Source: Thermoplasmata archaeon (GTDB lineage: Archaea > Thermoplasmatota > Thermoplasmata > Lutacidiplasmatales > UBA184). Taken from it: 64,000 nt of DNA. The stretch is from the NCBI GenBank assembly GCA_022749995.1, contig JAKIWO010000003.1:9926-73925 (forward strand), read 5' to 3'. This document shows positions 10,012-62,921 of the stretch, piece by piece. Position numbers and translations under genes: made by a program. The stretch's first letter is position 1, and each line of letters begins with the position of its first letter. Below the pieces are notes generated by a model that ran no database searches, was not told the origin of the DNA, and saw only the letters and a program-made list of their open reading frames with translations.

Positions 10012-10013
10012 CG

Positions 10014-11561: not shown

Positions 11562-11570
11562 CGGGCTCCC

Positions 11571-11717: not shown

Positions 11718-11720
11718 GTT

Positions 11721-13494: not shown

Positions 13495-13502
13495 GGAGCC
13501 TC

Positions 13503-19322: not shown

Positions 19323-19473
19323 CGCTCGTCCGGCGCACCTCGAGAGGGGCGACTCTCGAGAGAGATTGTGCCTTTTCTCTGAACGCGCGCGTAGAGAAAG
19401 CGGAGCTGCGTGGCCTCCCGCGAGGGAGCCGACCGGGCGCAAAGATATAGGTCCCGTTCCGGCTCCTTCCCGC

Positions 19474-27807: not shown

Positions 27808-28859
27808 TAGCTCCCTCCTAGGTGGATCTTGCCACGGAACTTCGCGTAGACGGCGTACGGGATCTCGACGCCTCCGGTGAGGAAGGACTCGACGAGCGCC
27901 CCTGCGGAACGGGAGTAGCTCTCGATGGCATCGGTGATATCGAAGTCGAAGGCGTCGGAGCCGGCGCCACTGCCGTAGCCGACCATCAGCACGCGCTCCC
28001 CGGCCCGGGCGTGGTCGAGCACATTGGCGAGGCCGATGAGGGCCGCGCCGGAGTAGGTGTTGCCGATGAACGGCGTCACGAGCCCGTACCGCATCTGCTC
28101 GTCGGTGAACCCGAGCTGCTTGCCCACCCGCGCCGGGAACTTGCCGTTCGGTTGGTGGAAGACCACGTGGGCGTAGCTCTTCGGAGTCGTCCCAGCTCGA
28201 TCCATGATGCGCTTGGCGCACTCCGTGACGTGGCGGAAGAATGCCGGTTCGCCGGTGAAACGGCCGCTATGGCTCGGGTACCGTTGACCCTCCCGACGCC
28301 AGAAATCCGGGGTGTCGGTGGTGTAGCTCAACGTGTGGAGCACGCGGGCGATCACCTGCTCCCGTCCGATGACGAAGGCTGCGCCGCCGGCGCTCGCCGA
28401 GTACTCGAGCGCGTCCCCCGGCGCTCCTTGGCTGGTATCGGAACCGATCGCCACGCCGTAGCGGACCATCTCGGCCCCGACCAGCCCGAGGCAGGTCTGG
28501 ATCGCGGCGGTGCCGGCCTTGCAGGCGAACTCGAAGTCGGCCGCGGTGAGCCCGGGGGTGGCTCCCACGGCTTGGGCGACCACGGTCGCCGAGGGCTTGA
28601 CCGCGTACGGGTGGGATTCACTGCCGATGTAGAGCGCTCCGATCTCCTGCGGGTCGATCTTCCCGCGGAGGAGGGCAACGCGAAGGGCCTCGGTCGAGAT
28701 GGTGATCGTGTCCTCGTCGGGGGAAGGGACCGACTTGCGCTGGACATTGAGCGAGGCACCCATGCTCGCCCCGTCGACCCCCCAGACCTTCCCGATTTCC
28801 GTCGGCGTGATTCGATAGCGCGGCACGTACGCCCCGTAGCTCACGACCCCGGCTTGCAT
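27807..28859 (-). CDS. Hydroxymethylglutaryl-CoA synthase (archaeal)
   Basis: GSESHPYAVKP, EFACKAGT, LEYSASAGG, DFWRR, FHQPNGKFP, YGSGAGSD. Confidence 0.96.
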   Translation of the reverse strand: MQAGVVSYGAYVPRYRITPTEIGKVWGVDGASMGASLNVQRKSVPSPDEDTITISTEALRVALLRGKIDPQEIGALYIGSESHPYAVKPSATVVAQAVGATPGLTAADFEFACKAGTAAIQTCLGLVGAEMVRYGVAIGSDTSQGAPGDALEYSASAGGAAFVIGREQVIARVLHTLSYTTDTPDFWRREGQRYPSHSGRFTGEPAFFRHVTECAKRIMDRAGTTPKSYAHVVFHQPNGKFPARVGKQLGFTDEQMRYGLVTPFIGNTYSGAALIGLANVLDHARAGERVLMVGYGSGAGSDAFDFDITDAIESYSRSAGALVESFLTGGVEIPYAVYAKFRGKIHLGGS

Positions 28860-47437: not shown

Positions 47438-48310
47438 CTATCCGACCGCGGCGAGCAGCTTCTGGTACGTCTCCCGGTTCGGCTCGAGCTCGATGCCGGT
47501 CACGGCGGGACCGATGCGGTCCGGCAGGAGCTTGAGCTCGAGCGATTCGACCTCGCCGGCGGCGGGGGGGGGCCGGTGCATCACGCCGATTGGGATGCGA
47601 CCGGAGCGGAGCGTCTCGAGGTAGAGCCGGAACATCGTGGCCCGGTCGGTTGCGTCGTAGCCGGGCAGGGTGGAAAGGTCGAGCACCTTCTCGCGCCACT
47701 CCTTGAAGGTGTCGTTGTACGTCACACACGGCGAGAGGTCCTCGATGAAGGCGAACCCTCGGTTGGCGCGGTTGAACTCGAGCGCCTCGACCAGCACCCT
47801 CGTGAGCGTCTTGGGGTCGCCCGAGAAGGTCCGTGCGACAAAGTTCGGCATCTGCTGGGAGAGCGCCGCGAGGATCGCATCGAAGGGGCGCTCGATGTTC
47901 CCCTCGTAGCCGAGCGGAGCGGTCGGGGCGGCTTGCCCCTTGGTGAGCCCGTAGGTCTCGTTCATCATCACGAGGTAGAGGATCGACGCATTCTTCTTGA
48001 ACGCGTGCATGAAGTGGCCCATCCCGATCGCGTAGCCGTCCCCGTCCCCTCCGACGGCGACGACGTTGAGCTTCGGGTTGGCAAGCTTCACGCCGACCGC
48101 CTGCGCGAGCAGCCGACCATGGAGCGCGTGCAGGCCGTTGATCTCGAGGAAGTTGTGGATGCCACCGGAGCAGCCGATGCCCCCGACCAGCACCGCCTCG
48201 TGCGGCGGGATCTTGAGCTCCGCCATCGCGCGCTTGAGCGCGGCCAAGGCACCGAAGTCCCCGCATCCCGGGCACCAGGTCGACGGGATCGGCTTGGCGG
48301 AGTCGACCAT
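47438..48310 (-). CDS. 2-oxoacid:ferredoxin oxidoreductase beta subunit (TPP-binding)
   Basis: WCPGCGDFG, GIGCSG, GGDGDG, NETYGLTKGQ, SPCVTYN. Confidence 0.95.
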   Translation of the reverse strand: MVDSAKPIPSTWCPGCGDFGALAALKRAMAELKIPPHEAVLVGGIGCSGGIHNFLEINGLHALHGRLLAQAVGVKLANPKLNVVAVGGDGDGYAIGMGHFMHAFKKNASILYLVMMNETYGLTKGQAAPTAPLGYEGNIERPFDAILAALSQQMPNFVARTFSGDPKTLTRVLVEALEFNRANRGFAFIEDLSPCVTYNDTFKEWREKVLDLSTLPGYDATDRATMFRLYLETLRSGRIPIGVMHRPPPAAGEVESLELKLLPDRIGPAVTGIELEPNRETYQKLLAAVG

Positions 48311-48311
48311 C

Positions 48312-50102
48312 CTAGCCTCCCTCCACGACGCGGGCGATCTCGGGGGAACGGAACGGAAGCCCGTCGTACTTGACCAGCGAGCGCAGCTTCGCGTGGTATT
48401 GCGGCAGCGCTTCGCGGATCAGGCCCGCGAACTGGCCGACGTAGTTGTGCTCGACGACGTACGCGCGCTCGAGCGGCTCCAGGAACGCGGTGAGTTCGCG
48501 CGCTGGGACCGGGAAGAGCGTCCGCGCTTGGAAGAACCTCGTGCTCTGGCCCTTCGCGAGAAGCCGCTCCTGCGCCTCCCGGATCGGGCCGGTCGTACTC
48601 CCGAAGCCGATGAACCCGACGGTCGCCTTCGGGTCGCCGTAGGTGCGCGAGAGCGGCAGTTCGGGCTCGAGCTGAGTGAGCTTCTCCATGCGTTTGCGCA
48701 TCATCTTGACCCGGTTCACGGGGTTCACCGAGACGTGCCCGTACTCGTCGTGCTCGTTGCCGGTGACCTGGCTCGTGATACCGACCGTTCCCGGCGGGGC
48801 GAACGGCGAGGCGCCGTCGGGGGTGTGTTCGTAGTACTTGTAGGCGGGCCGGGCCGCCACTTCGCCGGGATCGAGTCGCTTGCCCCGGTCGAGATGGACC
48901 TGCGTCAGGTCGAATCCGGGCACGGTCGAGGAGTTCTGGCAGAGCGCTTGGTCGAGCACCAGGATGACCGGCAGCCGCCACTTTTCGGCGATGTTGAGGG
49001 CGTCGACGGTCAGGTAGAAACAGTCGTCCACGGTGCCCGGAGCGATCAGCACCCGGGGGAAGTCGCCATGGCCGATGTGCGCCAGGTGCGCCACGTCGGA
49101 CTGCTCGTGCCGTGTCGGCTCCCCGGTCGAGGGACCGACCCGCTGGCAGTCCGCCACCAGCACCGGCAGCTCGGCCGCTCCGGCGTGGCCGATCCCCTCG
49201 GTCATGAGCGAGAGGCCGGGCCCGCTCGTCGAGGTCATCGCTCGGGCGCCGGCGTACGCGGCCCCGATCACCATGTTGATCGCGGCCAGCTCGTCCTCGG
49301 CCTGCCGGACCACGCCGTGCAAGGAGGGGAGGTACCGCTGGAGATACTCCATGATCTCCGTCGCCGGGGTGATCGGATAGCCCGCGAAGAAACGTCCGCC
49401 GCCCACCACAAACCCCAACGCGACCGCTTGGTTGCCCGTGAGCAGCCGCAGGTCGTGGGCGTCGCCGTCGACGATCGAGTACCGGTGCATCGGCTCGCTC
49501 GCGTCGAGCCCGGCCCGGCGACCGATCTCGAGCGCCTTCAGGTTCTTTTCCAGCGCCTCGCCACCTCGGCGCTTGAACCGCTCCTCGATGACCGTCCGGG
49601 TGAGCACGGGGTCGAACCCCATCATGACGGAGATGACCCCGTACGCGGTGACGTTCTTGTAGATCGGTTGACCGAGCTGGCTACCGGCCATCGTCGCGAA
49701 CGGGAAGCCAAAGGTGTTCGGCAGGTCGGTCTGGAACACCGAGGAGTCGTACAGGACGAACCCGTCCGCCTCGAGTTCCGGACGACCGAACTCAAGCGCT
49801 TCCTTGTCGAAGGCGACGAGCAGGTCGACGGTCGGCTTGAGCGACGCGATCGCGTCGCGAGAGGCGCGCACCGAGGAGTCGGCGTGGCCGCCCCGGATCC
49901 GGGAGAGGACGTTCCGGGATGTGTACACGTACAGGCCTCGCCGGCGGAAGTACCGGGCGAGCAGGTCGCTCACGGTCAGCGTGCCGTCCCCGCCCTGACC
50001 GCCAATGAGGACGGCCAGGTCGGAGAGCTCCTTGATCGGGGCCCCCTGGGCCGGTGCGGCCTCCCGGGCCGTGGTGGGCAACTGCGTTGCGGGGGTCGTC
50101 AT
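48312..50102 (-). CDS. 2-oxoacid:ferredoxin oxidoreductase alpha subunit (gamma-alpha fusion)
   Basis: GGQGGDG, IRGGH, AGYPITPATE, QAEDELAA, TSTSGPGLSL, QRVGPSTG. Confidence 0.95.
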   Translation of the reverse strand: MTTPATQLPTTAREAAPAQGAPIKELSDLAVLIGGQGGDGTLTVSDLLARYFRRRGLYVYTSRNVLSRIRGGHADSSVRASRDAIASLKPTVDLLVAFDKEALEFGRPELEADGFVLYDSSVFQTDLPNTFGFPFATMAGSQLGQPIYKNVTAYGVISVMMGFDPVLTRTVIEERFKRRGGEALEKNLKALEIGRRAGLDASEPMHRYSIVDGDAHDLRLLTGNQAVALGFVVGGGRFFAGYPITPATEIMEYLQRYLPSLHGVVRQAEDELAAINMVIGAAYAGARAMTSTSGPGLSLMTEGIGHAGAAELPVLVADCQRVGPSTGEPTRHEQSDVAHLAHIGHGDFPRVLIAPGTVDDCFYLTVDALNIAEKWRLPVILVLDQALCQNSSTVPGFDLTQVHLDRGKRLDPGEVAARPAYKYYEHTPDGASPFAPPGTVGITSQVTGNEHDEYGHVSVNPVNRVKMMRKRMEKLTQLEPELPLSRTYGDPKATVGFIGFGSTTGPIREAQERLLAKGQSTRFFQARTLFPVPARELTAFLEPLERAYVVEHNYVGQFAGLIREALPQYHAKLRSLVKYDGLPFRSPEIARVVEGG

Positions 50103-50325
50103 CCGAGGTGTTTTCTCGTCGGTGCCCAGATGGGCACCGGCGTGCCGGATTTCATCCCGCGGCCGTATTTAACCGTGGGGCCACGGAAGCTGGAGCGACT
50201 TTGTGCCGCGAGTGCCCCCGCGCTGCCGGCGGGTGCGATTGTGCATCGCCCACCGTCGAGAAACGGGTCGGCGCGACGCCGGCGCGCCAAAGGTTATCAC
50301 CGCTTGCGCGCGTCGCGCGGGCCGA

Positions 50326-51570
50326 ATGAGCGAGCGGCCGCTCGTCGAGTCGTACCACGACCGAACGGCCCCCCAGCGCAGGATTGCTCCGACTGTCACC
50401 TTCTGGGACGAGACGCTCCGCGACGGGGAACAGACACCGGGAGTCTATTTCTCACCGGAAGAGAAGCTCCGGATCGCGGAGAAGCTCTCCGACATCGGCG
50501 TCGGGGTGATCGACGCGGGTATCCCCGTCGTTTCCCCGAAGGAGGCGGCCTCGGTGCGGCTTCTCGCCGGGGCGGGACTTCGCGCCAAGATCCTCGCGTC
50601 CGCCCGGACGGTCCCCGGCGACGTGGAGGCCGTAGTCGATAGCGGCGCGAGCCATCTGGCGGTGTTCATCGCTGCGAGCGAGGTCCATCTGCGGTACAAG
50701 CTGCAGATGAGCCAAGAGGAGGTGCTCGCCTCGGCGGTGCGGAGCGTCCGTCGGGGGAAGGAGGCCGGCCTCCACGTGGCGTTCGTGACCGAGGACACGG
50801 TGCGGGCCCCGTTCGATTTCGTCGAGCGGCTTTACAAGGCCGCTCGGGAAGCCGGCGCGGACCGCCTGGTCATCTCCGATACGGTCGGGATCATGACGCC
50901 GCTCACCTTCCGCTGGTTCCTCGAGGAGTTCCAGCGACGAGTGCAGCCCACCGACTGGTCGGTCCATTGCCACAACGACTTCGGGCTGGCCACGGCCAAC
51001 ACGCTCGCCGCGTTGGAGGCGGGCGTGAACTGTCCCCACGTCTGTGTGAACGGGCTCGGAGAGCGCGCGGGGAACGCCGCGCTCGAAGAGGTCGCGCTCT
51101 GCCTCGAGGCGCTGTACGGCGTGAACACCGGTATCCGCACCGAATCGCTGCACAAGCTCTCCCGGCTCGTGGAGGAACTCTCGGGCATCCCGGTGGCGGC
51201 GAACAAGGCCCTGGTCGGTTACAACGCGTTCTCCCACGAGGCGGGCATTCACACGCACGGCATTCTCCGCCACACGCTCACCTACGAGCCACTGCAGCCG
51301 GAGCGGGTCGGAGCCCAGCGCCAGTTGATCCTCGGCAAGCACACCGGTAAGGCCGCCCTCGTCGAGAAGCTCAAGGAGCGGGGCGTCCAGCTGGAGGAGC
51401 CGGAGCTGGCCGAGCTGCTCCGGCAGATCAAGCAGCGGACCGAGGCCGGCGGCAAGGAGCCGTCCCGGCACCTGCTCGCCGAGTACCGAGAACTCTTCTC
51501 CCATCCCGGCCTATCGGATACGGAGTTCTGGAAGCTCGTGAGCGCGCTACCGGTGGCAGGGGCCCCGTGA
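50326..51570 (+). CDS. DRE-TIM acetyl-CoA condensing enzyme (homocitrate/isopropylmalate/citramalate synthase family, no LeuA regulatory domain)
   Basis: DETLRDGEQTPG, HCHNDFG, GLGERAGN, NAFSHEAGIH, GKHTG; AAAGGTTAT promoter upstream. Confidence 0.9.
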   Translation: MSERPLVESYHDRTAPQRRIAPTVTFWDETLRDGEQTPGVYFSPEEKLRIAEKLSDIGVGVIDAGIPVVSPKEAASVRLLAGAGLRAKILASARTVPGDVEAVVDSGASHLAVFIAASEVHLRYKLQMSQEEVLASAVRSVRRGKEAGLHVAFVTEDTVRAPFDFVERLYKAAREAGADRLVISDTVGIMTPLTFRWFLEEFQRRVQPTDWSVHCHNDFGLATANTLAALEAGVNCPHVCVNGLGERAGNAALEEVALCLEALYGVNTGIRTESLHKLSRLVEELSGIPVAANKALVGYNAFSHEAGIHTHGILRHTLTYEPLQPERVGAQRQLILGKHTGKAALVEKLKERGVQLEEPELAELLRQIKQRTEAGGKEPSRHLLAEYRELFSHPGLSDTEFWKLVSALPVAGAP

Positions 51571-52847
51571 CGGGCAACGGCCACGGCCTCACCCTGGCCG
51601 AGAAGATCCTGGCCCGCGCCTCCGGCCTCGAGCGGGTCGTCCCCGGGCAGATCATCGATGGCCAGGTCGACCTCGCCATGATGCACGAGCAGGGCGCGCA
51701 GACCGTCGGTCCGTTCCACCAGATGGGCGCCACGAAGGTCTGGGACCCGGAGCGAGTGGTGATCGCGATCGACCATTGGGTGCCGGCCTCCACCGAAGGG
51801 GCGGCGATCCTGCACCGGATCCTCCGCCAGTTCGCGGCCGAACAGCACTTGCCCCACTTCTACGATGTCGGTCGGCACGGGATCTGCCACCAGATCCTCG
51901 CCGAGGACGGCTGGGTCGTCCCGGGGGACCTCGCCGTGGGAACCGACTCCCACACCAACATGCTGGGCGCGATGGGCGCGGTCGCCGCGGGGATCGGCCC
52001 GACGGAGATGGCGGCCGTCCTGGCGCTGGGCCGACTCTGGCTCAAAGTGCCTCCCACGGTGCAGGTTCGGGTGCGGGGCACCCTCGGCAAGGGCGTTACG
52101 GCCAAGGATCTCGTCCTCCGGGTGCTCGGGGAGATCAAGACCACCGGCGCGACGTACAAGTCGGTCGAGTTCTCGGGTCCCACGATCGAGCGGCTGTCGA
52201 TGCCCGAGCGGTTCACCATCTGCAACATGACCAGCGAGATGGGGGCGAAGTGCGGCCTCATCGCCCCGGATGCGACGACGAAGGAGTACCTCCGACTGAT
52301 CGCCAAGCATCCGGACCACCCGCTCCAGGCCGACGCCGATGCCCACTACGAGCGGGTGATCGAGGTCGACGTCGACGGCATGCCCCCGATGGTCGCCTGC
52401 CCGTTCTCCCCCGACAACGTCCGACCGCTGCCCGAGGTCGCGCGGGAGCACATCCGGGTCGACCAGGTCTTCCTCGGCTCCTGCACCAACGCGCGGATCG
52501 AGGACCTGCGCGAGGGCGCGGAGGTGCTCCGCGGCCACAAGGTCGCCTCCGGCGTACGGTTCATCGTCTCCCCTGCGTCGACGAAGATCTACCAGCAGGC
52601 GCTCGAGGAGGGACTCATCCAGCTCTACACGGAGGCCGGCGCGGTGTTCACCAACTCGAGCTGTTCGGCCTGCTTCGGGGGCAACATGGGGATCCTCGCA
52701 CCGGACGAGGTGTGCGCTTCCTCCTCCAATCGGAACTTCCCGGGCCGTATGGGCGCCAAGAACGCCCGCATCTACCTGCTCTCACCGGCGGCCACCGTTG
52801 CCAGCGCCATTCGCGGCGAGGTCGCCGACCATCGGGAGCTGAACTAG
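51567..52847 (+). CDS. Homoaconitase / 3-isopropylmalate dehydratase large subunit
   Basis: EKILA, DH, GICHQ, DSHT, FLGSCTNARIEDL, CSACFG, SNRNFPGRMG. Confidence 0.93.
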   Translation: MTGNGHGLTLAEKILARASGLERVVPGQIIDGQVDLAMMHEQGAQTVGPFHQMGATKVWDPERVVIAIDHWVPASTEGAAILHRILRQFAAEQHLPHFYDVGRHGICHQILAEDGWVVPGDLAVGTDSHTNMLGAMGAVAAGIGPTEMAAVLALGRLWLKVPPTVQVRVRGTLGKGVTAKDLVLRVLGEIKTTGATYKSVEFSGPTIERLSMPERFTICNMTSEMGAKCGLIAPDATTKEYLRLIAKHPDHPLQADADAHYERVIEVDVDGMPPMVACPFSPDNVRPLPEVAREHIRVDQVFLGSCTNARIEDLREGAEVLRGHKVASGVRFIVSPASTKIYQQALEEGLIQLYTEAGAVFTNSSCSACFGGNMGILAPDEVCASSSNRNFPGRMGAKNARIYLLSPAATVASAIRGEVADHRELN

Positions 52848-52862
52848 CGGGGCCAGAGCATC

Positions 52863-53384
52863 ATGCGCGATGCGATCGAGGGCCGGGTGTGGACGCTGGG
52901 GGAGGATGTCGACACCGACCAGATCATCAGTGGAAAGTACCTCACCATCATCGACCCCGAGGAGCTCAAGAAGCACGTCCTCGAGATCGCGCTGCCCGAG
53001 TTCGCTGAGGCGGCACGTCCTGGCGACATCCTAATCGCCGGGATCAACTTGGGCTGCGGCTCCAGCCGCGAACACGCCCCGGCCGCGTTGAAGGCGATCG
53101 GCGTGGCAGCGATCGTCGCGGACTCCTTTGCGCGTATCTTCTACCGCAATTCGATCAACTTGGGGCTCCCGGCGATTGAGGCGCAGGGAGTGCGCCAGCT
53201 CTTCGAGGCCGGCGATACGGCGCGTATCTCCCTCTCGGGAGGTACCGTGACGAACGTGCGCACCGGCCGCAGCGTAACTTTCCCGCCGATCCCTGCCCAC
53301 CTGCTCGAATTGCTCGAGGTGGGTGGCCTCGTGGAGAAGGTACGGGCGGAGCTGGCCGCCCGGCCGAGCGCCGCTCCGGCATGA
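52863..53384 (+). CDS. Homoaconitase / 3-isopropylmalate dehydratase small subunit
   Basis: DVDTDQII, NLGCGSSREHA, SFARIFYRNSINLG. Confidence 0.93.
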   Translation: MRDAIEGRVWTLGEDVDTDQIISGKYLTIIDPEELKKHVLEIALPEFAEAARPGDILIAGINLGCGSSREHAPAALKAIGVAAIVADSFARIFYRNSINLGLPAIEAQGVRQLFEAGDTARISLSGGTVTNVRTGRSVTFPPIPAHLLELLEVGGLVEKVRAELAARPSAAPA

Positions 53385-54514
53385 GCGACTCGACGGCCCA
53401 ACTCGTCTTCCTCCCGGGCGATGGCACCGGGCCGGAGGTGGTCCGGGAAGCCCGCAAGGTGCTCGACGCGCTCGGCGAGGGGGACGCGCATCCGTGGTCG
53501 GTGGAGGAGCACCCCGGAGGGGCGATCTACTACCGGGACCACGGCAAGGAGTGGGAGCCGGCCAGCGAGGAGGCAGCCCTCCACGCCGATGCAGTGCTGC
53601 TCGGCGCGGTGGGCTGGCCCGGGATCATGCTGCCCGATGGGAACATCGCCGGTGCGGCACTCGTGCTCGGGCTGCGACGGCGTCTCGACCTGTACGCCAA
53701 CGTCCGGCCGTGCCGCCTCTACCCGGGCGTGCTCCACCGGATCAGTGGAAAGTTCAGCCAGGTCTGGTCTCCCGAGAACGTCGACCTGGTGGTGGTGCGC
53801 GAGAACACGGAGGGGCTCTACACCCCCGTCCACGGTCGGCTGGACCGGGGCGGCTCCACCGACGTCGCCGTCGACACCCGACTCATCACCCGCAAGGGCG
53901 CCGAGCGGGTGATCCGGTACGCCTTCGAGCTCGCGGGTCGGCGCGGCCGGGGAGCCCCAGAGGACAAGGCCCGACGGGTCACCTGCGTCGACAAATCCAA
54001 CGTGCTCGCCGGCTGCCAGTTCTTCCGCGAGACCTACGACCGCATCGCCGCGGAGTACGCGGGCGTGGCCCGGGACTACGCCTACGTCGACGCGTTCACC
54101 CAGTGGGTCGTGCGCAATCCGGAACACTACGACGTGGTCGTCTCCACCAACATGATGGGGGACATCATCAGCGACCTGGCGTCGGTGCTCCAAGGCGGGA
54201 TGGGGTTTGCCGCCGGGGGGAACATTGGAGAGGGACATGCGATGTTCGAGCCCGTGCACGGCAGCGCCCCCAAGCACGCCGGCAAGAACGAGGTGAACCC
54301 GATGGCCACCTTTCTCGCGCTCGAGATGATGCTTCGCTACCTGGGCGACCGTCGCAGCGACAGCCGCTTCACCCGACAAGCCGACCGGCTCGAACGCACC
54401 ATCGCGCGGTTGCTCGCCGACGGTTCGGTCCGCACCTACGACCAAGGCGGCACCGTCCGCACGAGCGAGGCCGGCGACCGTGTGGCGGCGGCCATCCGGG
54501 GGGAGGCGGCGTGA
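53381..54514 (+). CDS. Beta-decarboxylating dehydrogenase (homoisocitrate/IPM/tartrate-D-malate family)
   Basis: PGDGTGPEV, GAVGWP, LYANVRP, RENTEGLY, DKSNV, NMMGDIISD, EPVHGSAP. Confidence 0.92.
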   Translation: MSDSTAQLVFLPGDGTGPEVVREARKVLDALGEGDAHPWSVEEHPGGAIYYRDHGKEWEPASEEAALHADAVLLGAVGWPGIMLPDGNIAGAALVLGLRRRLDLYANVRPCRLYPGVLHRISGKFSQVWSPENVDLVVVRENTEGLYTPVHGRLDRGGSTDVAVDTRLITRKGAERVIRYAFELAGRRGRGAPEDKARRVTCVDKSNVLAGCQFFRETYDRIAAEYAGVARDYAYVDAFTQWVVRNPEHYDVVVSTNMMGDIISDLASVLQGGMGFAAGGNIGEGHAMFEPVHGSAPKHAGKNEVNPMATFLALEMMLRYLGDRRSDSRFTRQADRLERTIARLLADGSVRTYDQGGTVRTSEAGDRVAAAIRGEAA

Positions 54515-55692
54515 GCACCGGCCGACCCGTCGCCCTGGTCGGCGGAGCCAGCACCGTCTGGGGGGTGCGCGCTGCGACCTGGTCGGAGCTGGTCCAGGAG
54601 GCCGGCGCCCGCTTGTTCGCCGCCGTACCGGGACTCGCCGCGGCGGACGTGGACTCGCTGTTCGTGGGCGCGGCCGAGCCGGAACGGTTCGCGTTCCAGT
54701 CGCACGTCGCACCGCTCGCCGCCGAGCTGCTCGGACTGGCTCCGCACCGGATCGTGCAGCGGACCGAGCTCGCCTGCGCCTCGGGCCAGTCGGCGATCCG
54801 TAGCGCCTACGCGGCAATCGCCGCTGGGCTGTCCGAGGTCGCGGTCGTGCTCGGCGTGGAGAAGATGAACCTCCCGTCGATGGCCGAGGCGAACACATCG
54901 ATGGCCTGCGTGATGGACCGGCCGTGGGACGGCGCCCACGGCGCCACCGCCCCTCCGTTCTTCGCCATGGTCGCCCAGCGGCACATGCTCGAGTACGGCA
55001 CCACGCCGGAGCAGCTCGCCGGGGTCTCCGTGAAGAACCACCGATTCGCGAACTCCAACCCGGACGCGCAATTCTACGAGAAGAAGTTCTCCCGCGAGAA
55101 GCTGCTGGGACTTCCGCTCGTCGCCCCCCCGCTACGGCTCGGGGACTGCTCCTCGATGACCGACGGGGCGGCGGCGGTGGTGCTCGTCGCCGGCGAGAAG
55201 GCCCGACAGTACACCGACACCCCGGCCTGGGTGCGGGGTTCCGGCCAGCACGCGAGCTGGCACAATCTCGCCAACAGCGGCTCCCTCACCGACTGGGTCG
55301 GGATGCGCTCGGCCGCGCGCGAGGCGCTCGGATCGGCGGGCATCACCGCCCAGCAGCTCGACTTCGCCGAGCTGCACGACTGCTTCACCATCTCGGAGCT
55401 GATCGAATACGAGATGCTCGGCCTGTGCCCGCGCGGCCAAGGGGGGCGCTACCTGGAAGAGGGCCAGACGGAGATCGGCGGCGACGTAGTGGTGAATCCT
55501 CGCGGGGGACTGCTCGGTTGCGGTCATCCGCTCGGGGCGACGGGCGTGGCGCAGGCCGTGGAAGTGTACCGCCAGTTCACCCACAGCGTGCCTCCGGCGC
55601 GGCAGGTCCCCGACCCGGAGTGGGCGCTCGTCCACAACCTAAGCGGCAGCGCCAACGTCCACTCGATGATGGTCTACCAGCGGGGGAGCTAG
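54511..55692 (+). CDS. Archaeal/SCP2-type thiolase with intact catalytic Cys
   Basis: ELACASG, GVEKM, DGAAA, ELHDCFT, GHPLGATG; GTG start overlaps the previous stop. Confidence 0.92.
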   Translation: MSTGRPVALVGGASTVWGVRAATWSELVQEAGARLFAAVPGLAAADVDSLFVGAAEPERFAFQSHVAPLAAELLGLAPHRIVQRTELACASGQSAIRSAYAAIAAGLSEVAVVLGVEKMNLPSMAEANTSMACVMDRPWDGAHGATAPPFFAMVAQRHMLEYGTTPEQLAGVSVKNHRFANSNPDAQFYEKKFSREKLLGLPLVAPPLRLGDCSSMTDGAAAVVLVAGEKARQYTDTPAWVRGSGQHASWHNLANSGSLTDWVGMRSAAREALGSAGITAQQLDFAELHDCFTISELIEYEMLGLCPRGQGGRYLEEGQTEIGGDVVVNPRGGLLGCGHPLGATGVAQAVEVYRQFTHSVPPARQVPDPEWALVHNLSGSANVHSMMVYQRGS

Positions 55693-55694
55693 CC

Positions 55695-56255
55695 TTGGCT
55701 GCCGCCACCGCTCCCCGGCGACGGAGCTCCTCCGAGCTCCCCGCCGCTGGCCCGGAGCCCGTGGCTCGACCGGCCGAACCGCGACCGGCCGCACCAGTGA
55801 AGCGCACGACTCCCACGGCATTCGACTTCTTTCCCCAGGAGGAGTCCCAGCAGACCCGTGTCAGCCGGTTCTTTGAGGAGCTGAGGGCCGGCCGGCTGTC
55901 CACCACCCGCTGCCGAAAGGACGGCGCGCTGCTGTGGCCGCCGAGGGTCGCCTGCCCGCGCTGCCATGGCGAGGACCTTGAGTGGGTGGAGCTACCGCTC
56001 ACCGGGCGACTCTACGCGTTCAGCGCCGTGCTGGTCGGGGCGCCGCTCGGTATGGAGCAGGACCTGCCGATCACGGTGGGACTGGCCGACCTGGAAGGCG
56101 CGCCGCTCCGACTGTTCGGCCGGATCGTGGGCGCAGGGTGGGAGCGGCTGAGCGTGGGCCAGCGGGTGCGGGTCGAGCCGTTCGCGGTGCCGGACGAGCG
56201 CGTGTTCTACCGGTTCCGGGTCGACGGAGGCCTCGCCGAAAATTCGTCGGCGTAG
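55695..56255 (+). CDS. DUF35 Zn-ribbon/OB-fold protein (thiolase partner)
   Basis: FFEELRAGRL..TRCRKDG..WPPRVACPRC, GRLYAFS; TTG start. Confidence 0.88.
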   Translation: MAAATAPRRRSSSELPAAGPEPVARPAEPRPAAPVKRTTPTAFDFFPQEESQQTRVSRFFEELRAGRLSTTRCRKDGALLWPPRVACPRCHGEDLEWVELPLTGRLYAFSAVLVGAPLGMEQDLPITVGLADLEGAPLRLFGRIVGAGWERLSVGQRVRVEPFAVPDERVFYRFRVDGGLAENSSA

Positions 56256-56266
56256 GCTATTTATAG
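56255..56266 (+). promoter_or_regulatory. TATA box of aglB, palindromic
   Basis: GCTATTTATAGC about 45 nt upstream of the aglB ATG (coordinates approximate). Confidence 0.5.
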
Positions 56267-56309
56267 CGGGCCCAGTCTGCGCGGCCGCCTACCGGGAGCA
56301 GTTTCGTCG

Positions 56310-59300
56310 ATGGCGGAGCAGGGTACCGGCTGGTGGCGGGAGCACGGCTGGACCGTCGCCATCCTCCTGGCGGCCTTCTCGCTCGCCTTGGTGGTCCGCT
56401 CGCTGTTTGCGTGGTCCATCTTCCAGCAGTACGGCTGGCTGTACATCTACGCGGGCGGCTCGGACTCGTACTATCACTCTCGGGTCACGCAGTACATCAT
56501 TCTCAATCACACGAACCTCGTCCGCGACATGGCGCTCCGCTACCCGGTCGGGGCGATCAACCCGCGGGAGCCGCTGTTCGACTGGATGAACGCCGTCCTG
56601 GGCATCCTGTTCCAGGGCTTCTTCCCGGGGGCGACCCCGGCCCTCCGTGCGCAGCAGGCCGGCGCGTTCTTCCTGGACTTCCAGGCCCCGCTCTGGGCCG
56701 GCATCGGCGTCTTCCCGGTCTACCTGATCGGCAAGGAGGTCAGCAGCAAGCGGACCGGGCTCATCGGCGCCCTCCTCTACCCGTTCATCGTCGCCAACAT
56801 CGACTCCTCGGGGCTCGGCTACGCGAACTACCTGACCTTCTACACCGCCGTGATCCTGTTCACCGCCTACGCCTACCTCCGTACGGTCAAGGCGACCTCC
56901 CGGCGGCGCTGGGTGGTCAGCTACCGGAAACCCCGCGAGTTCCTGCAGGGGCTCCGCCAGTTCTGGACGTACGAACGAACGGCGGTGAAGTGGGCGGTCC
57001 TGACCGGCGTGCTGTTCGGTACGCTCGCGCTGGCCTGGCAGGGCTACCCATTCTTCATCGCCATCATGGTGGTGTTCCTCATCATCCAATTCCTCATCGA
57101 GAGGATCCGTCACGTGGACTCCTTCGGCCTGTACGTCGTCACCTGGATCGTCGGGCTCATCGGCTTCCCGATGGCGATGCCCTACTACCTGGCGCAGGGG
57201 CTGTTCGCCAACTGGTTCGATGCGCCGCTGCTGCTGTTCTTCGGCGTCCTCCTCCTGCTGCTCCCGTTCCTGCTGCTGCGCGACTACCCGTGGGTGGTCT
57301 CGGTCCCCGTCTTCGTCATCGGCATGCTGGGGGCCGCGGCGCTGTTCTACGCCGTCGACCCGACCACCTTCGCGACGGTGATCACGGGCCAGGGCTACTT
57401 CGTCAAGACGCTGGTCTACACGACCGTCGCCGAGGCGCAGGCGCCCTCGATCGACTCGCTCATCCTCGGGTACGGTGTGATCACCTTCTTCCTCGCCTTC
57501 GCCGGCCTGATTCTGGTCGCGATCCGGATCGCACGGCAACGGTTCCGTCGGGACCTCGTGTTCTTCTTCGCGTTCTGCGTGGTGTCGATCTACCTGCCGA
57601 TCACGGCGGCGAAGTTCTTCCTGGTCGGCTCCCCCGTCTACGCGCTCCTGCCGGCGGAGGTGCTCGTGCTGCTCCTCGACGTCGCCGGCTACACGACGCT
57701 GCGGCGCAACATCGCCTCGCTGTCCGACCGGCGCAGTCAGGCGAGCGCCTTCCGGCGATCGTTCAAGGCGCGCCACGTCCTCGTCATGGTCGTCGTGCTG
57801 GTCATCCTGGTCCCGAACGTCTGGTACGCCATCGACGCCGGGATTCCAGGGAACTCGAAGACCGGCTACAACCTGCAGGTGTACAACACGCTCCCACCGC
57901 CGTTGCGCACGTCCCCTGCGAACGCCTCGAGCTACTACTTGGGCGCCGCCGGGACCAGCCTGGATACGCCGAACCAGTACGACGAGGCCGGCTACAATTG
58001 GCTGGCCACCCAGGACACCAATCTGCCGATGTACGACCGTCCGGCGTTCATCAGCTGGTGGGATTATGGATTCCAGGCGATCGACGAAGGGTTGCACCCT
58101 TCGGTCGCCGACAACTTCCAAAACGGCATCGACCCGGCCGGTAACTTCCTGCTCTCGCAGAACGAGAGCCAATCGATCGCCATCCTGGCGGTGGAGCTGC
58201 TCGCCGCCGAGCAGACCATCTCCCACCAGCCGTACCTGCCCTCGAATCTCGACGCGATCCTGGCGCACGACGGCGTCAACCTGCGGACGCTCCACGCGCT
58301 CATGGTGAATACCTCCGCCGACGTCCCGCTCGTGATCGCCCACCCCGAGCGGTACCTGCCGGTGAGCGCCGCGAACCTGGACCGGACCAACGCGATGTAC
58401 ATGGCGACCTCCTGGTTCCTCGGCGAGACGCTCTCGTTGAGCGGGGTCGCGAAGGTGTACGACGACGTGCAGGCGTACACGGGCTGGGCGATCCGGTACG
58501 CGATGGTGGACTCCCGGCTCTTCCCGTTCAGCGGCCAGAGCACGGGGATCTTCTACGCGCCGGCCGACCTCACCGACCGGGTGATCAGCTCCGGCGGAGT
58601 TCCGACCACCTACTACACGCTCAGCGTGTTGGGCTCGGACGGCAACACGTACACGGCCGGATCCGTCCCGCCCGGCGTGCAGGCCGCCCAGGTGAACATC
58701 GGCTACAGCCCGGCGTTCTACAACACCATGCTCTACCACATCTTCATCGGCTACAACGGGACCGAGGTCGGCCAGGGCCAGGGGATCCCCGGCCTCTCGG
58801 GCGCGGTGAGCGGCAACACCCCAGAACCCGGCTGGATGTTGCAGCACTTCCAGGTGGTCTACCGCACGGCGTACTACTGCCCGTACGCCAACCCGAGCCA
58901 GCATCCCGGCTGCTACGGCGCGGACAACCTCCCGGACGCGGTGGCGAGCGCCCATGCCCACAACGGCAGCGTCGACGCCAGCACCGGCTCCTACTTCAAC
59001 GGTGGCGAGACGATGCTGGAGTACTACTCCGGCCAGCCGTTCGTCGGGACCGTCGAGCTTCCCGGCGGGACCCCGGTGAGCTCGGTCCGCCTGACCGTGT
59101 ACGACAGCTGGAACATCCCGCACATGACCACGCTCACCGGGGCGAACGGAAGCTTCGCCCTCGACCTGCCCCCCGGCGACGACACAGTGAACGTCACGAC
59201 CGGCACCGTCAACGGTCTGACCCAGGCGGGGGCGACGCTGCTGCGATCGATCCACATCGATGTCCCCTCCTCGCAGGGATTCGCCGTCAACCCCCCACCC

Positions 59301-62300
59301 CTGGTGCAGAACGTCGTGCTCCCGTCGACCACGGTCTCAGGGTTCGTCTACTTCAACGACGCGAACAACTCGACCTACCAACCGGCGGCCGACCGACTCG
59401 CCGTCGGCGCCACGGTCAAGCTCTTCGGCGCGGGATTGCCGACCTACACGGCGCTCACCGACGCCAGCGGCTCCTACCAGCTCGCGGGGATTTCCCCGGG
59501 AGTGTACTCCTTCACCATCGGATACGCCGGAGCGCAGTTCCCGCAGACCAATGTCTTCGCCACGACCGGCAAGGTGGTGAACGAAACGGTTGCGCTCAGT
59601 CCCGGGCAGCTCTCCGGATTCGTCGTCGGGGTGAGCAACATCACCAAGGGACTTGCCGGTGCGACCGTGACCCTCTCCTCCGTACGCGGCGCGGTCCAGC
59701 AGACGATCACCGACTTGACTGGTCTCTACACGTTGCGGGACATCGTCCCTGGCAACTACACGGTCCGCGCCAGTGTCGGGGGCACCTCGCTCATCAGTCC
59801 GGCGATTCCCGAGATATTCACCGCGGCCGGAGGCAAGGCCAAGCTCAACCTGACCTTGTTCCCGACGCTCCGGGTCCAGCTGATCGCTCTCGCCAGCGGC
59901 GTACCGCAATCCGGCGTGCCCGTCCGGTTCACACAGATCGAGCCGCTCGGGCCGGCGGCGAGCGGGAACAACACCACCTCGACGGCGCCGGGGGTCAATT
60001 CCACCGTCGTGCTCACGGGCCCTGATGGCACGCTCACCGCGCTGTTGCCCGCGGGCAACTACAGCATCTACGGCGCGGCCCTCCTCGGCACGCAGTGGTT
60101 CGCGGGCCTCGCCAGCGCCTACCTGCCACGGGCGAGCGTCGCGGGCTCGGGCGTCCTCGTCCTGCCTCCGCTATCGCTCTCCCCCGCGGTCACCCTGACC
60201 GGGACCGTGGTCGCGCCGGCGAGCTCCCCCTCCAACAACGCGTTCGGGATCCCGATCACCGCCTACAACGCCCACGGCGACGGGGTGCTCGCGCTCGCCA
60301 ACCAGAGCGGGGGCTTCCGACTGCTCCTGCCGCCGAACAACTACGCCGTCGAGGCGATCCAGGCGCCTACCTCGACGAGCTCGGCGAGCTCCGCCGCGCT
60401 CGCCCAGGTCAATCTGACCTACTCGACCGACCTCCGGCTGCCGCTGGTCCCTGGATTCCTGTGGCAAGCCCAGGCCGGTGCCAGCCTGGCCAGCGCGCCG
60501 AGCTTCTGGCCGGCCGCGGGTGCGACGGTCAGTGTCTCCACCGGTCCCGGCACCACGCCGGTCACCACGGTGGCGAACGGTAACGGCACGGCCCGCCTGG
60601 TCCTGCCCCTGGCGTTGCCATCGGGCCGGACCTACTGTGTGGCCGTCAGCGCGCTCGGCTTCGAGCCGTACTCGCAGTGCGGTCTGCCCCCGCAGGCGCT
60701 CGCAGGGTTCAGCGACCTGGCGATGCACCTGTCCACCGAACCGGTGAACATCAACTTCGTCGGCTACCCTCCGGGCACGACCCTGCGCCTGAACCTGAGC
60801 GCGACGGCCGCCCCGGCCCAGAGTACGAGCGTCCTCGGCGGGCCCCGATTCAACCTCACCCTCGACCCCGGCGCCTACCAGCTGACCGCCTGGGCACCCT
60901 ACCCGAACGGGACGGGCGTGCTCCAGCCGCCGCACCCGGTCAACTTTAGCGTCCCCTTCGGGTACGCCCAGACGAACCTCACGGTCATCCTCCTCCATCA
61001 GCTCGGCTCCGTGGGAACGCTGCAGCTGCCTTCGGGAGTCAACGCCAGCCGAGTGCAGGTGCGGCTGGTCTCCTCCTCCCTCAACGTGAGCGTCAGCGGC
61101 ACGCAGTTCCTGAGCCGCTTCCTCGCGACCCCCGGGAGCTACGTCGCCTACACCACGGCGGCGGCCGGCAATCTGAGCTACGCCAACTTGACCACGATCA
61201 CCGTTGCGGCCAACGGGGTCGCCACGCCGACGATCTCTTTGCTGGGCTCCGGCACCTTCCTGGTGGGTACGCTCGCCCCGCCGACCGGCTACTCCCTCAA
61301 CGGGTCGACGGTGGCGGTTACGCTGCTCGGCCCTGGGGGCCACTCCGTACCCGCGCAGGCCGTCGACGGAGAGTTCCAGGCGCTGCTGCCCACCGGGGGC
61401 AGCTACCGGCCCATGGTGAATGTCACGCTGCCCGAGCCGGGACCCGGCGGCCACACCGAGTACATCCAGTTCCGCACGTCCGGGCTCACGACCTGCCCCG
61501 TGAGCGGCAACACGAGCGCGTGCTCGATCCCTCTCTCCGCCACCATTGGCCTGAGCACCGTCTACGGGTCCGTGAGCGCGATCGGTAGCACCCTCCGGCC
61601 GGACGGCACCCTCTGGTTCATCGACAGCACCGGCGCGCGCACGAGCACGACCCTGAGCGCCGGGAGCTACTCGGTTCGCCTGCCCCCCGGTGACTACGTG
61701 GCCTACGCCAGTGCCCCGGGGGCCGGCACGATGCTCGCCGGACTCGCCAACGTGAGCGTCGGCAACGGGAGCACCGCCCTCAACTTGAGCCTCGGCCTGG
61801 CTTGGACCGACAGCCTCACGGTGCTACCGGCCCCGGGCGGGCCGGCGCTGGCCAACATCAGCGTTTCCCGCACCGGCTTCCCGGTCCTCGACTTCACCAA
61901 CGAGCCGGTGAGCACCACGATCCCCCTCACGCTCCCGGCGGGGACCTGGACGATCACCGCCCGCTCGAGCGCGAACGCCTTTGGGGTGCGCACCGCCAGC
62001 GTCGCGACGCTCGCGGTGACGCTGCTTTCCGGCAACGCCGCCACGACGCTGGCACTGCGTGCGGTGCTCACGAGCTCGGTCTCCATCGACCTCACGGGCC
62101 TCACGCACACGAGCGCCCTCCCCGGCAGCACCGTCCGGTTCACCTTCGGGCTGGTCAATACGGGCTCCACGCCGGTGACCTTCCACCTGCTCGGGAGTCC
62201 GGTGACTTGGAACTTCAGCTTCTCCCCGGCGAACTTCACGCTGCCGGCCGGTGCGACCGGTGTGGCGACCTCCGAGGTCAGCATCGGGCTCCCTGCGAAC

Positions 62301-62921
62301 GCCCCGGTCGCGCATCCGCCGATCATCATCGAGGCGATCGCCTCGAACAACTCGATCCTCGGCTCGAGCACCCGTTCCCCCCTCGTGGATGTCGCCCCCG
62401 AGCCGGGACTCGAGATCGGAGCGAACCCCCGGCTGAGCGCCATCTCGAGCGATTCGGTCACCGTGCCGTTCTGGGCGTACAACCCCGGCAACGTCGCCGA
62501 GTCGGTCCACTTCGCCGTGGGGGATGCCGCGCGGATCGCCGGGTTGGGCTGGACCATCGCGCTCCGGTCCGGCGCGAGCGCCCTGCCGAACCAGGTCAGC
62601 CTGAGCCCCGGACAGAACTCGAGCTACTCGGTGCTGCTGAGTTCGCCGAGCGGGCAGGCGCTGCCGCCCGGCACGACCACCGTGCTCGCCAGCGTCACCA
62701 ACGGCTCGCTCTCGCTCCAGCGCAGCGCGCTGCTCACCGTTCCGGGCCTCACCATCGGGCTGACCAACAGTAGCATCGCGATCACGGGCCCGTCGATCGG
62801 TTCGCCTCCGGCGTACCCGTCCTGGCTCGTGCCGGTGCTCGTCTTCTTGCCGGCGCTCGCCTTCTTGGCCGCGGCCGCGAGCTGGCGGTGGTGGAGGACC
62901 CGGCGCTGGGTGCGCCGGTAG
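56310..62921 (+). CDS. aglB: Oligosaccharyltransferase AglB (STT3) with a very long beta-sandwich C-terminal extension and terminal TM anchor
   Basis: GSDSYYH, TVAEAQ, WWDYG and DNFQ motifs; multi-TM N-terminal half; repeated carboxypeptidase-regulatory/Ig-like units; C-terminal TM + RR. Confidence 0.92.
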   Translation: MAEQGTGWWREHGWTVAILLAAFSLALVVRSLFAWSIFQQYGWLYIYAGGSDSYYHSRVTQYIILNHTNLVRDMALRYPVGAINPREPLFDWMNAVLGILFQGFFPGATPALRAQQAGAFFLDFQAPLWAGIGVFPVYLIGKEVSSKRTGLIGALLYPFIVANIDSSGLGYANYLTFYTAVILFTAYAYLRTVKATSRRRWVVSYRKPREFLQGLRQFWTYERTAVKWAVLTGVLFGTLALAWQGYPFFIAIMVVFLIIQFLIERIRHVDSFGLYVVTWIVGLIGFPMAMPYYLAQGLFANWFDAPLLLFFGVLLLLLPFLLLRDYPWVVSVPVFVIGMLGAAALFYAVDPTTFATVITGQGYFVKTLVYTTVAEAQAPSIDSLILGYGVITFFLAFAGLILVAIRIARQRFRRDLVFFFAFCVVSIYLPITAAKFFLVGSPVYALLPAEVLVLLLDVAGYTTLRRNIASLSDRRSQASAFRRSFKARHVLVMVVVLVILVPNVWYAIDAGIPGNSKTGYNLQVYNTLPPPLRTSPANASSYYLGAAGTSLDTPNQYDEAGYNWLATQDTNLPMYDRPAFISWWDYGFQAIDEGLHPSVADNFQNGIDPAGNFLLSQNESQSIAILAVELLAAEQTISHQPYLPSNLDAILAHDGVNLRTLHALMVNTSADVPLVIAHPERYLPVSAANLDRTNAMYMATSWFLGETLSLSGVAKVYDDVQAYTGWAIRYAMVDSRLFPFSGQSTGIFYAPADLTDRVISSGGVPTTYYTLSVLGSDGNTYTAGSVPPGVQAAQVNIGYSPAFYNTMLYHIFIGYNGTEVGQGQGIPGLSGAVSGNTPEPGWMLQHFQVVYRTAYYCPYANPSQHPGCYGADNLPDAVASAHAHNGSVDASTGSYFNGGETMLEYYSGQPFVGTVELPGGTPVSSVRLTVYDSWNIPHMTTLTGANGSFALDLPPGDDTVNVTTGTVNGLTQAGATLLRSIHIDVPSSQGFAVNPPPLVQNVVLPSTTVSGFVYFNDANNSTYQPAADRLAVGATVKLFGAGLPTYTALTDASGSYQLAGISPGVYSFTIGYAGAQFPQTNVFATTGKVVNETVALSPGQLSGFVVGVSNITKGLAGATVTLSSVRGAVQQTITDLTGLYTLRDIVPGNYTVRASVGGTSLISPAIPEIFTAAGGKAKLNLTLFPTLRVQLIALASGVPQSGVPVRFTQIEPLGPAASGNNTTSTAPGVNSTVVLTGPDGTLTALLPAGNYSIYGAALLGTQWFAGLASAYLPRASVAGSGVLVLPPLSLSPAVTLTGTVVAPASSPSNNAFGIPITAYNAHGDGVLALANQSGGFRLLLPPNNYAVEAIQAPTSTSSASSAALAQVNLTYSTDLRLPLVPGFLWQAQAGASLASAPSFWPAAGATVSVSTGPGTTPVTTVANGNGTARLVLPLALPSGRTYCVAVSALGFEPYSQCGLPPQALAGFSDLAMHLSTEPVNINFVGYPPGTTLRLNLSATAAPAQSTSVLGGPRFNLTLDPGAYQLTAWAPYPNGTGVLQPPHPVNFSVPFGYAQTNLTVILLHQLGSVGTLQLPSGVNASRVQVRLVSSSLNVSVSGTQFLSRFLATPGSYVAYTTAAAGNLSYANLTTITVAANGVATPTISLLGSGTFLVGTLAPPTGYSLNGSTVAVTLLGPGGHSVPAQAVDGEFQALLPTGGSYRPMVNVTLPEPGPGGHTEYIQFRTSGLTTCPVSGNTSACSIPLSATIGLSTVYGSVSAIGSTLRPDGTLWFIDSTGARTSTTLSAGSYSVRLPPGDYVAYASAPGAGTMLAGLANVSVGNGSTALNLSLGLAWTDSLTVLPAPGGPALANISVSRTGFPVLDFTNEPVSTTIPLTLPAGTWTITARSSANAFGVRTASVATLAVTLLSGNAATTLALRAVLTSSVSIDLTGLTHTSALPGSTVRFTFGLVNTGSTPVTFHLLGSPVTWNFSFSPANFTLPAGATGVATSEVSIGLPANAPVAHPPIIIEAIASNNSILGSSTRSPLVDVAPEPGLEIGANPRLSAISSDSVTVPFWAYNPGNVAESVHFAVGDAARIAGLGWTIALRSGASALPNQVSLSPGQNSSYSVLLSSPSGQALPPGTTTVLASVTNGSLSLQRSALLTVPGLTIGLTNSSIAITGPSIGSPPAYPSWLVPVLVFLPALAFLAAAASWRWWRTRRWVRR

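Follow-up and report, generated by a model that had tools for sequence, protein, structure and literature searches.

Why should an archaeon whose genome has no other part of branched-chain amino acid synthesis carry four leucine-like genes, joined in one operon to a thiolase and its DUF35 partner? This question is raised by positions 47438-56255 of a 64,000-nucleotide stretch of DNA (hereafter the window), which corresponds to contig C23 of a metagenome-assembled genome (MAG; 87% complete, 1.6 Mb, 70% G+C) of a Lutacidiplasmatales archaeon (Thermoplasmata). Genome surveys routinely score such genes as leucine biosynthesis from 2-oxoisovalerate; here they occur only in Thermoplasmatota without the remaining branched-chain synthesis. 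Judging from sequence, we propose, with about an even chance of being right, that the four genes constitute a distinct and ancient archaeal module that elongates 2-oxoacids by one carbon and feeds acyl-CoA metabolism. Text searches of the literature returned no paper that connects genes of these types in archaea. New here are a strict anticorrelation with IlvC and IlvD, coexistence with true homocitrate synthase (HCS), a conserved pocket signature, a wider clade of synthases marked by a WDE motif, and independent contexts with thiolase, acyl-CoA dehydrogenase (ACAD) and MaoC genes.

Near relatives of the source organism are labelled Thermoplasmata or Candidatus Lutacidiplasmatales archaea and come from acid soils, peat and sediments; the Lutacidiplasmatales have been described as acidophilic peptide degraders, aerobic or facultatively anaerobic (PMC9287336). 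Every genome compared is a MAG. Synteny was followed at the family level in 16 loci from seven genera of Lutacidiplasmataceae, and distribution across the phylum in a sample of 301 Thermoplasmatota genomes. Genes in the relatives were called with our own G+C-skew caller together with tblastn, and domains and families with Pfam and NCBIfam profiles at curated cut-offs.

Gene calls and both profile collections confirm the eight genes of the original prediction at their coordinates, including a plus-strand unit of six. This unit opens with a short synthase of the isopropylmalate synthase (IPMS)/HCS family (50326-51570, 414 aa; Pfam HMGL-like and HCS_D2) and continues with the large subunit (51567-52847; Aconitase) and small subunit (52863-53384, loop KYLTII; Aconitase_C and TIGR02087) of an aconitase-family dehydratase/isomerase, a beta-decarboxylating dehydrogenase (53381-54514; Iso_dh; motifs GAVGWP and SAPKHAGKN), an active thiolase of the SCP-x/archaeal type (54511-55692; Thiolase_N and Thiolase_C_1) and DUF35, the thiolase partner with a zinc ribbon and an OB fold (55695-56255; zf-ChsH2 and OB_ChsH2_C). 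The first four junctions, from synthase through thiolase, are a 4-nt overlap, a 15-nt gap and two further 4-nt overlaps, so that the predicted spacing of at most 15 nt holds up to the thiolase; at DUF35 it holds only with a TTG start at 55695, 2 nt after the thiolase stop (55692), and not with GTG 55761, which leaves a 68-nt gap. The operon ends at DUF35 because the following aglB gene has a strong TATA box of its own, CTATTTATAG (56259-56268), immediately after the DUF35 stop, in a plus-strand promoter region (56256-56309) that marks the operon's 3' end; AT-rich heptamers are very scarce in 18 kb of this 70% G+C DNA, and CTATTTATAG is one of the few. On the other side, a divergent control region of 223 nt (50103-50325), as had been predicted, separates the synthase from two minus-strand genes of a 2-oxoacid:ferredoxin oxidoreductase (OFOR): oforA, the alpha subunit with fused gamma and alpha parts and a YPITP motif (48312-50102; POR, POR_N, PFOR_II and TIGR03710), and oforB, the thiamine pyrophosphate-binding beta subunit (47438-48310; TPP_enzyme_C and PFO_beta_C).

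What kind of condensing enzyme is the synthase? Its metal and catalytic residues are present (LRDGEQ, Glu156 and the HxH of HCHND), and Pfam reports HMGL-like (252 bits) plus HCS_D2 with no regulatory LeuA_dimer domain. This absence, which had been predicted, is weak ground for excluding LeuA, as some archaeal IPMS also lack the domain. The protein scores under every matching NCBIfam cut-off, all IPMS models included, and a search for homologous proteins returned close family members only, with uninformative names. In a maximum-likelihood tree, the family synthase pairs with one other sequence only (support 98/98) and stands in a clade of its own, apart from the 522-aa canonical LeuA encoded near ilvD, Neisseria LeuA, Sulfolobus HCS, NifV/AksA-like proteins and CimA-type proteins (represented by a 528-aa member of the phylum). 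The clade is marked by WDE, which replaces FDT or LDS ahead of LRDGEQ, and related WDE-clade synthases lie on contigs labelled Woesearchaeota and Theionarchaea.

The substrate pocket was compared by alignment onto E. coli LeuA positions L73, H97, S139, N167 and P169, equivalent to Leu143, His167, Ser216, Asn250 and Pro252 of the M. tuberculosis enzyme; synthase positions 112 and 184 align with H97 and P169. In the columns of Leu143, His167, HCS Arg133, Ser216, Asn250 and Pro252, the synthase reads S/A/A/V/V/S, against L/H/E/S/N/P in LeuA and H/A/R/T/S/A in HCS. All five LeuA positions are changed, whereas the canonical LeuA of the phylum keeps L/H/S/N/P. Across canonical LeuA (phylum, E. coli, Neisseria), these columns hold L, H, E/M, S, N/D and P/A; across lysX-linked HCS and Sulfolobus HCS (6ktq), H, G/A, R, T, S/G and A; and across twelve families of the synthase clade, A/S (G once), A/S/V, A/T/C/S, V, V/L and C/S/A. 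In the last five of these columns, Brassica MAM synthase carries V, E, G, A and P. Engineers have mutated H97, S139, N167 and P169 of E. coli LeuA for longer 2-keto acids, and H97A and P169A open the pocket to them (PMC3370425); Leu143 of the M. tuberculosis enzyme touches the substrate methyl (bioRxiv 10.1101/2021.09.28.462264). As judged from these alignments, the distinct clade to which the synthase belongs matches neither the LeuA nor the HCS signature, and its pocket is uncharged, opened at the LeuA His and Leu sites and filled at the Ser and Asn sites. Such a pocket would suit an aliphatic side chain longer or more linear than isopropyl.

These residues bear directly on the 2-oxoglutarate routes that had been suggested, in which a homocitrate-type enzyme would take 2-oxoglutarate to 2-oxoadipate and beyond, towards glutaryl-, adipyl- or pimeloyl-CoA, and equally on a further possibility, that the operon is a remnant of alpha-aminoadipate lysine synthesis. 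NCBI labels relatives of these genes 'homoaconitate hydratase', the HacA and HacB models score sizeably, and genus g5 and family f46 have lysX without another synthase. However, His72, Arg133 and Ser/Thr135 of T. thermophilus HCS, which we take to be the binders of the distal carboxylate, correspond to S, A and V in the synthase (with A or S at the first site more widely), whereas H, R and T are found in Sulfolobus HCS and in all lysX-linked HCS of the phylum; the small-subunit loop also lacks the arginine of the homoaconitase YLRT. Within the family, only genus g5 has a LysX above the cut-off, and most of the family has none. No separate leucine or lysine set accompanies the operon in its own genome, but carriers in other classes do have a different synthase (37-41% identical) with the HCS signature H/G/R/T, directly beside lysX. 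These carriers also have a second large subunit, and genome G227 has both a second dehydrogenase and a large subunit on its lysX contig. Since the lysX-linked sets possess their own enzymes, the operon module differs from alpha-aminoadipate lysine synthesis; the lysine reading was dropped in view of the true HCS beside lysX and these second dehydratase and dehydrogenase sets, and the homocitrate-type routes as a whole are disfavoured to the point of being very improbable.

The other enzymes of the module also belong to broad subfamilies and score under the specific models. The large subunit passes NF001614, TIGR01343 and TIGR02086 but stays under the LeuC and HacA equivalogs; the small subunit passes TIGR02087 (LeuD/DmdB subfamily) and stays under LeuD and HacB, and NCBIfam scans of paralogues gave no separation of functions. 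The YLTI loop and the GAVGWP motif singled out in the original prediction can both be read in the sequence. The loop is neither the YLVY of isopropylmalate (IPM) isomerase nor the YLRT of homoaconitase; small subunits of this subfamily have YLT(I/V), FLQI or YLAF, and the canonical LeuD of the phylum has YLV. The dehydrogenase (Iso_dh, 292 bits; under all equivalog cut-offs) has two best solved relatives tied at 209 bits, tartrate dehydrogenase (3flk) and isopropylmalate dehydrogenase (IPMDH; 3u1h), and orthologues in other classes at 56-61% identity. It mixes the tartrate-dehydrogenase-like GAVGWP with an isocitrate-dehydrogenase-like SAPKHAGKN, a type of motif that presumably points to NADP use. 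Re-citrate synthases are members of the synthase's enzyme family, and this, together with the SAPK(H/Y)AGK motif, would fit a set in which Re-citrate synthase, aconitase and isocitrate dehydrogenase replace the oxidative branch of the tricarboxylic acid cycle. That idea was dropped as extremely improbable: citrate synthase is encoded twice in the genome, alongside a full-length AcnA and another Iso_dh paralogue, and the pocket offers the carboxylate of oxaloacetate no basic residue to bind.

Do these genes nevertheless serve branched-chain synthesis? The operon is its genome's only LeuA/HCS-type gene set: each genome of the family has one synthase, one large-subunit and one small-subunit homologue, and just one further gene of the Iso_dh family, about 40% identical. 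E. coli queries for IlvE, IlvD, IlvC, IlvI, IlvH, LysA, DapA and DapB found no match in the genome, nor was a class IV branched-chain aminotransferase seen in it. IlvD is missing from all 22 genomes of the order examined. Full-length orthologues of the synthase, at 45-53% identity, are present in eleven more families of the phylum sample, and none of its approximately 42 carriers has IlvC or IlvD, both of which the same searches recovered in 14/14 reference genomes. With IlvC and IlvD in no carrier, LysX mostly absent and a distinct pocket, the module is non-canonical, as had been supposed; what was found is not a canonical leucine or lysine set whose linkage to other genes is unconserved. Genomes of family f35 have IlvD over the cut-off without IlvC, and therefore IlvD there probably acts in another pathway.

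The window also encodes the threonine ammonia-lyase IlvA (19366-20751, plus strand), of the biosynthetic type with one ACT domain (TIGR01127, 386 bits against a cut-off of 378.75), despite the absence of IlvB, IlvC, IlvD and IlvE from the genome. IlvA was considered as a phylogenetic marker of 2-oxobutyrate supply and rejected as nonspecific, since it is common among non-carriers and two carrier families do not have it.

The second line of evidence concerns the thiolase, which was correctly predicted to be intact: the nucleophilic cysteine (ELACASG), HDCF and GHP motifs are all present. Orthologues of the thiolase and DUF35 (57-62% identity) occur in nine other families, in one of which DUF35 forms a fusion with a 3-hydroxyacyl-CoA dehydrogenase/enoyl-CoA hydratase. 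Wherever context was read, the thiolase orthologues adjoin FadB-type genes, and they therefore look like beta-oxidation-type ketothiolases. The own genome encodes five ACADs and a FadB-type enzyme. In the zinc ribbon of the operon's DUF35 (55860-55930), the first zinc knuckle reads CRKD, with one cysteine replaced, and orthologues in other families keep CxxC.

Linkage between the module and thiolases is conserved in the family and recurs elsewhere beside ACAD, MaoC dehydratase and acyl-CoA ligases. Across lineages, thiolases of three paralogue types adjoin the synthase or the dehydrogenase. In Lutacidiplasmataceae (f1), the thiolase is built into the operon in all genera sampled; in f34, it lies 1.4 kb from the dehydrogenase; in f43, one protease gene separates the two; in f38, it lies 6 kb from the synthase; and in f46, a different thiolase paralogue is directly upstream of the synthase, within an island containing GGGPS, DGGGPS, geranylgeranyl reductase and an MVD-like gene. 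In addition, on contig L177 from a metagenome (36% G+C), an ACAD-thiolase-DUF35-dehydrogenase cluster, with a thiolase of a third paralogue type and an ADP-forming acyl-CoA synthetase upstream, converges on a wider-clade WDE synthase. Other wider-clade synthases have a MaoC dehydratase downstream, and yet another is followed by a flavoprotein, an AMP-binding enzyme and an aldehyde dehydrogenase. Assuming that a genome of 2-3 Mb encodes five or six thiolases, one of them would fall within 3 kb of a given gene with a chance of 1-3%, a rough figure and not a formal test; by this rough estimate, five lineages with differing thiolase arrangements exceed chance. On contig L173, labelled Woesearchaeota, one overlapping operon (9001-14708) combines a wider-clade WDE synthase with both dehydratase subunits, a dehydrogenase and a gene for a B12-binding radical SAM enzyme, and a PaaK-like ligase and an aminotransferase are encoded close by.

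Could the thiolase instead be a passenger? In a leucine salvage route, a diverged LeuABCD would convert valine-derived 2-oxoisovalerate to 2-oxoisocaproate, and the thiolase/DUF35 pair would have a separate task, for example acetoacetyl-CoA supply to the mevalonate pathway. Several observations fit. The top-scoring characterised relatives are IPMS and IPMDH, the small-subunit loop is uncharged as in IPM isomerases, and the f46 synthase sits among isoprenoid-lipid genes. Moreover, HMG-CoA synthase (HMGS; 27807-28859), which is not part of the operon, has its own DUF35 and an inactive thiolase (26638-27807, minus strand), whose nucleophilic cysteine is replaced by glutamate and whose HDCF cysteine is lost; the Cys, HDCF and GHP residues, the GHP histidine included, are missing from this thiolase in the own genome and in 7/7 family genomes checked. 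However, the cysteine is lost in 19/20 Thermoplasmatota genomes from nine families (loci L182-L201), only f47 keeping C/C/H, and the pseudo-thiolase is therefore phylum-wide and old rather than lineage-specific, with no tie to the lineages that have the operon thiolase. A better candidate for the working mevalonate-pathway thiolase is the type on contig C16 (13185-20666, outside the window), where a third, active paralogue is flanked by a UbiX-type flavoprotein and a Tes-like radical SAM gene carrying an HMPTM-type zinc ribbon; the thiolase of the f46 isoprenoid-lipid island is the orthologue of this paralogue. Leucine salvage also has to contend with the five altered LeuA pocket positions and the lack of a class IV branched-chain aminotransferase, and it leaves the recurrent thiolase and ACAD adjacency in other lineages unexplained. 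We consider it unlikely, though a serious contender.

The OFOR link is partial. The alpha subunit of the enzyme passes TIGR03710 (588.8 bits against a cut-off of 482.75); the beta subunit matches NCBIfam beta models for 2-oxoacid:acceptor oxidoreductases under their cut-offs and has one paralogue, on contig C12, at 44% identity. Within the family, the divergent OFOR is present in 9/16 loci. A role for it as the connecting step is plausible but weakly supported.

This divergent OFOR, the intact condensing-type thiolase with DUF35 and a synthase free of a regulatory domain could together favour a citramalate-type form of the pyruvate route given in the original prediction, in which pyruvate would be elongated to 2-oxobutyrate, converted by OFOR to propionyl-CoA and condensed by thiolase/DUF35 to 3-oxovaleryl-CoA. 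However, pyruvate-specific synthases have a pocket narrowed by bulky side chains (Leu/Leu/Tyr in Leptospira CimA), and the synthase has small residues at two of these sites; CimA models fall far under their cut-offs (TIGR00977, 201.8 against 450; NF042433, 181.4 against 950). A search, not an exhaustive one, turned up no PHA synthase and no other enzyme that would consume 3-oxovaleryl-CoA, and the ACAD and FadB contexts point to oxidation. This route appears improbable. The ordered scheme of the original prediction (elongate, decarboxylate, then condense) and the products it named were pure conjecture; an ACAD adjacent in one relative and FadB-type genes beside thiolase orthologues fit thiolytic, beta-oxidative use as well as, or better than, condensation.

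How well is the arrangement conserved among close relatives? The synthase, large subunit and small subunit follow in order in all 16 family loci, and the dehydrogenase, thiolase and DUF35 continue in all 15 that are not ended by a contig edge; one genus has an insertion of about 2 kb ahead of the dehydrogenase. Identities within the family are 63-86% for the five enzymes and 50-65% for DUF35. Because the same order is found in 15/15 loci of sufficient length, the six-gene arrangement is not due to chance, and of the predicted eight-gene locus it is this six-gene part that is conserved. The control region retains two TATA-like boxes: the one on the OFOR side, GTATTTAAC (50166-50174), is kept in 9/9 OFOR-facing family spacers, and a AAAGGTTAT-like box about 30 nt 5' of the synthase ATG is conserved as well. 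Between the boxes (50230-50300, and in the matching spacers of L013-L023) lie palindromes, such as GCGATTGTGCATCGC in the window and TACGTTAGCGTACG or CACGTTAACGTCCGTCGTG in other genera, which may be a candidate operator site. No Rfam family was reported within the 223-nt spacer. Downstream, a 2203-aa AglB-like gene (56310-62921, plus strand) is found 3' of the operon in most family genomes.

What, then, might the module do? In the reading we prefer, that of an elongation module tied to acyl-CoA metabolism, the synthase would condense acetyl-CoA with an aliphatic 2-oxoacid, the dehydratase would isomerise the resulting alkylmalate, and the dehydrogenase would oxidatively decarboxylate the product, probably with NADP. 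The substrate is predicted to be uncharged, and neither 2-oxoisovalerate bound in the manner of LeuA nor 2-oxoglutarate; we would guess at a short 2-oxoacid, linear or with a single branch (such as 2-oxobutyrate or 2-oxovalerate), or at a differently bound 2-oxoisovalerate. The product would bypass branched-chain and lysine biosynthesis: OFOR would turn the elongated 2-oxoacid into an acyl-CoA, and thiolase/DUF35 would act on the matching 3-ketoacyl-CoA. Because of the ACAD and FadB contexts, the direction would most simply be thiolytic, returning the acetyl-CoA spent by the synthase. Taken as a complete shunt (elongate, decarboxylate, beta-oxidise), a short aliphatic 2-oxoacid, such as 2-oxobutyrate derived from threonine or methionine, would gain one carbon, pass through OFOR to an acyl-CoA such as butyryl-CoA and be oxidised to a 3-ketoacyl-CoA, from which thiolase/DUF35 would yield acetyl-CoA units, regenerating the acetyl-CoA of the synthase and bypassing propionyl-CoA. 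This full sequence of steps is tentative, and we think it rather unlikely to be correct as a whole. Run recursively or in reverse, the system could build medium-chain acyl-CoA in archaea without fatty acid synthase. The general idea of the original prediction, 2-oxoacid elongation tied to acyl-CoA, survives in the module and its thiolase link; its OFOR part is weak and its 2-oxoglutarate routes are disfavoured.

Several observations weigh against the reading of a module that feeds acyl-CoA metabolism. All gene absences rest on MAGs, and the substrate has been deduced purely from residues. The thiolase orthologue and the synthase show no phylogenetic co-occurrence in the sample: families f23, f29, f41, f54 and f56 have the thiolase orthologue without the synthase, and f26, f45 and f46 the synthase without the thiolase orthologue. 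OFOR is not at the locus in genera g3 and g4, and OFORs of this kind number only two in the genome and may be no more than the enzymes of central pyruvate and 2-oxoglutarate metabolism. The unrelated aglB also follows the operon in most family loci, and conserved order within one family is therefore weak functional evidence. Finally, IlvA, which occurs in many IlvC/IlvD-negative Thermoplasmatota, is common in non-carriers and absent in carrier families f38 and f47; being too widespread, it is no evidence for a 2-oxobutyrate substrate.

If the proposal is true, these genes would be a new entry from amino-acid-derived 2-oxoacids into acyl-CoA and lipid metabolism in abundant soil and sediment archaea, and would supply a natural enzyme whose pocket is reshaped like those engineered by LeuA mutation. 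Predictions of auxotrophy for these lineages would also be corrected.

How does the operon compare with systems already known? With LeuA/LeuCD/LeuB and with CimA of Methanocaldococcus jannaschii and bacteria, it shares the three enzyme families, the logic of gene order, the catalytic residues and an uncharged small-subunit loop; unlike them, it has a synthase of the WDE clade with five changed pocket residues and no regulatory domain, scores below equivalog level, and occurs only in genomes without IlvC and IlvD. The HCS, homoaconitase and homoisocitrate dehydrogenase systems of the LysW type and AksADEF likewise combine a short synthase, a two-subunit aconitase-type enzyme and a beta-decarboxylating dehydrogenase, but the operon lacks the His/Arg/Thr triad and YLRT and coexists with true lysX-linked HCS in other classes. 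Plant MAM synthase, 2-isobutylmalate synthase and engineered E. coli LeuA (H97A/S139G/N167A/P169A) share with it the absence of a regulatory domain and the replacement of the pocket His and Asn by small or hydrophobic residues, a change that in those enzymes admits longer 2-oxoacids; the operon synthase is independently archaeal and has Val rather than Gly at Ser216. As in the archaeal thiolase/DUF35(/HMGS) complex and the thiolase-DUF35-FadB sets of beta-oxidation, an intact SCP-x-type thiolase is followed by a DUF35 protein with zinc ribbon and OB fold, whereas here HMGS is missing and the pair is chained in translation to an isocitrate/isopropylmalate-family dehydrogenase. The OFOR resembles the two-subunit enzymes of Sulfolobus, Aeropyrum and Halobacterium in its fused gamma-alpha and separate beta subunits, its YPITP motif and its passing of TIGR03710; compared by genes alone, it differs from them in being the divergent partner of an elongation operon.

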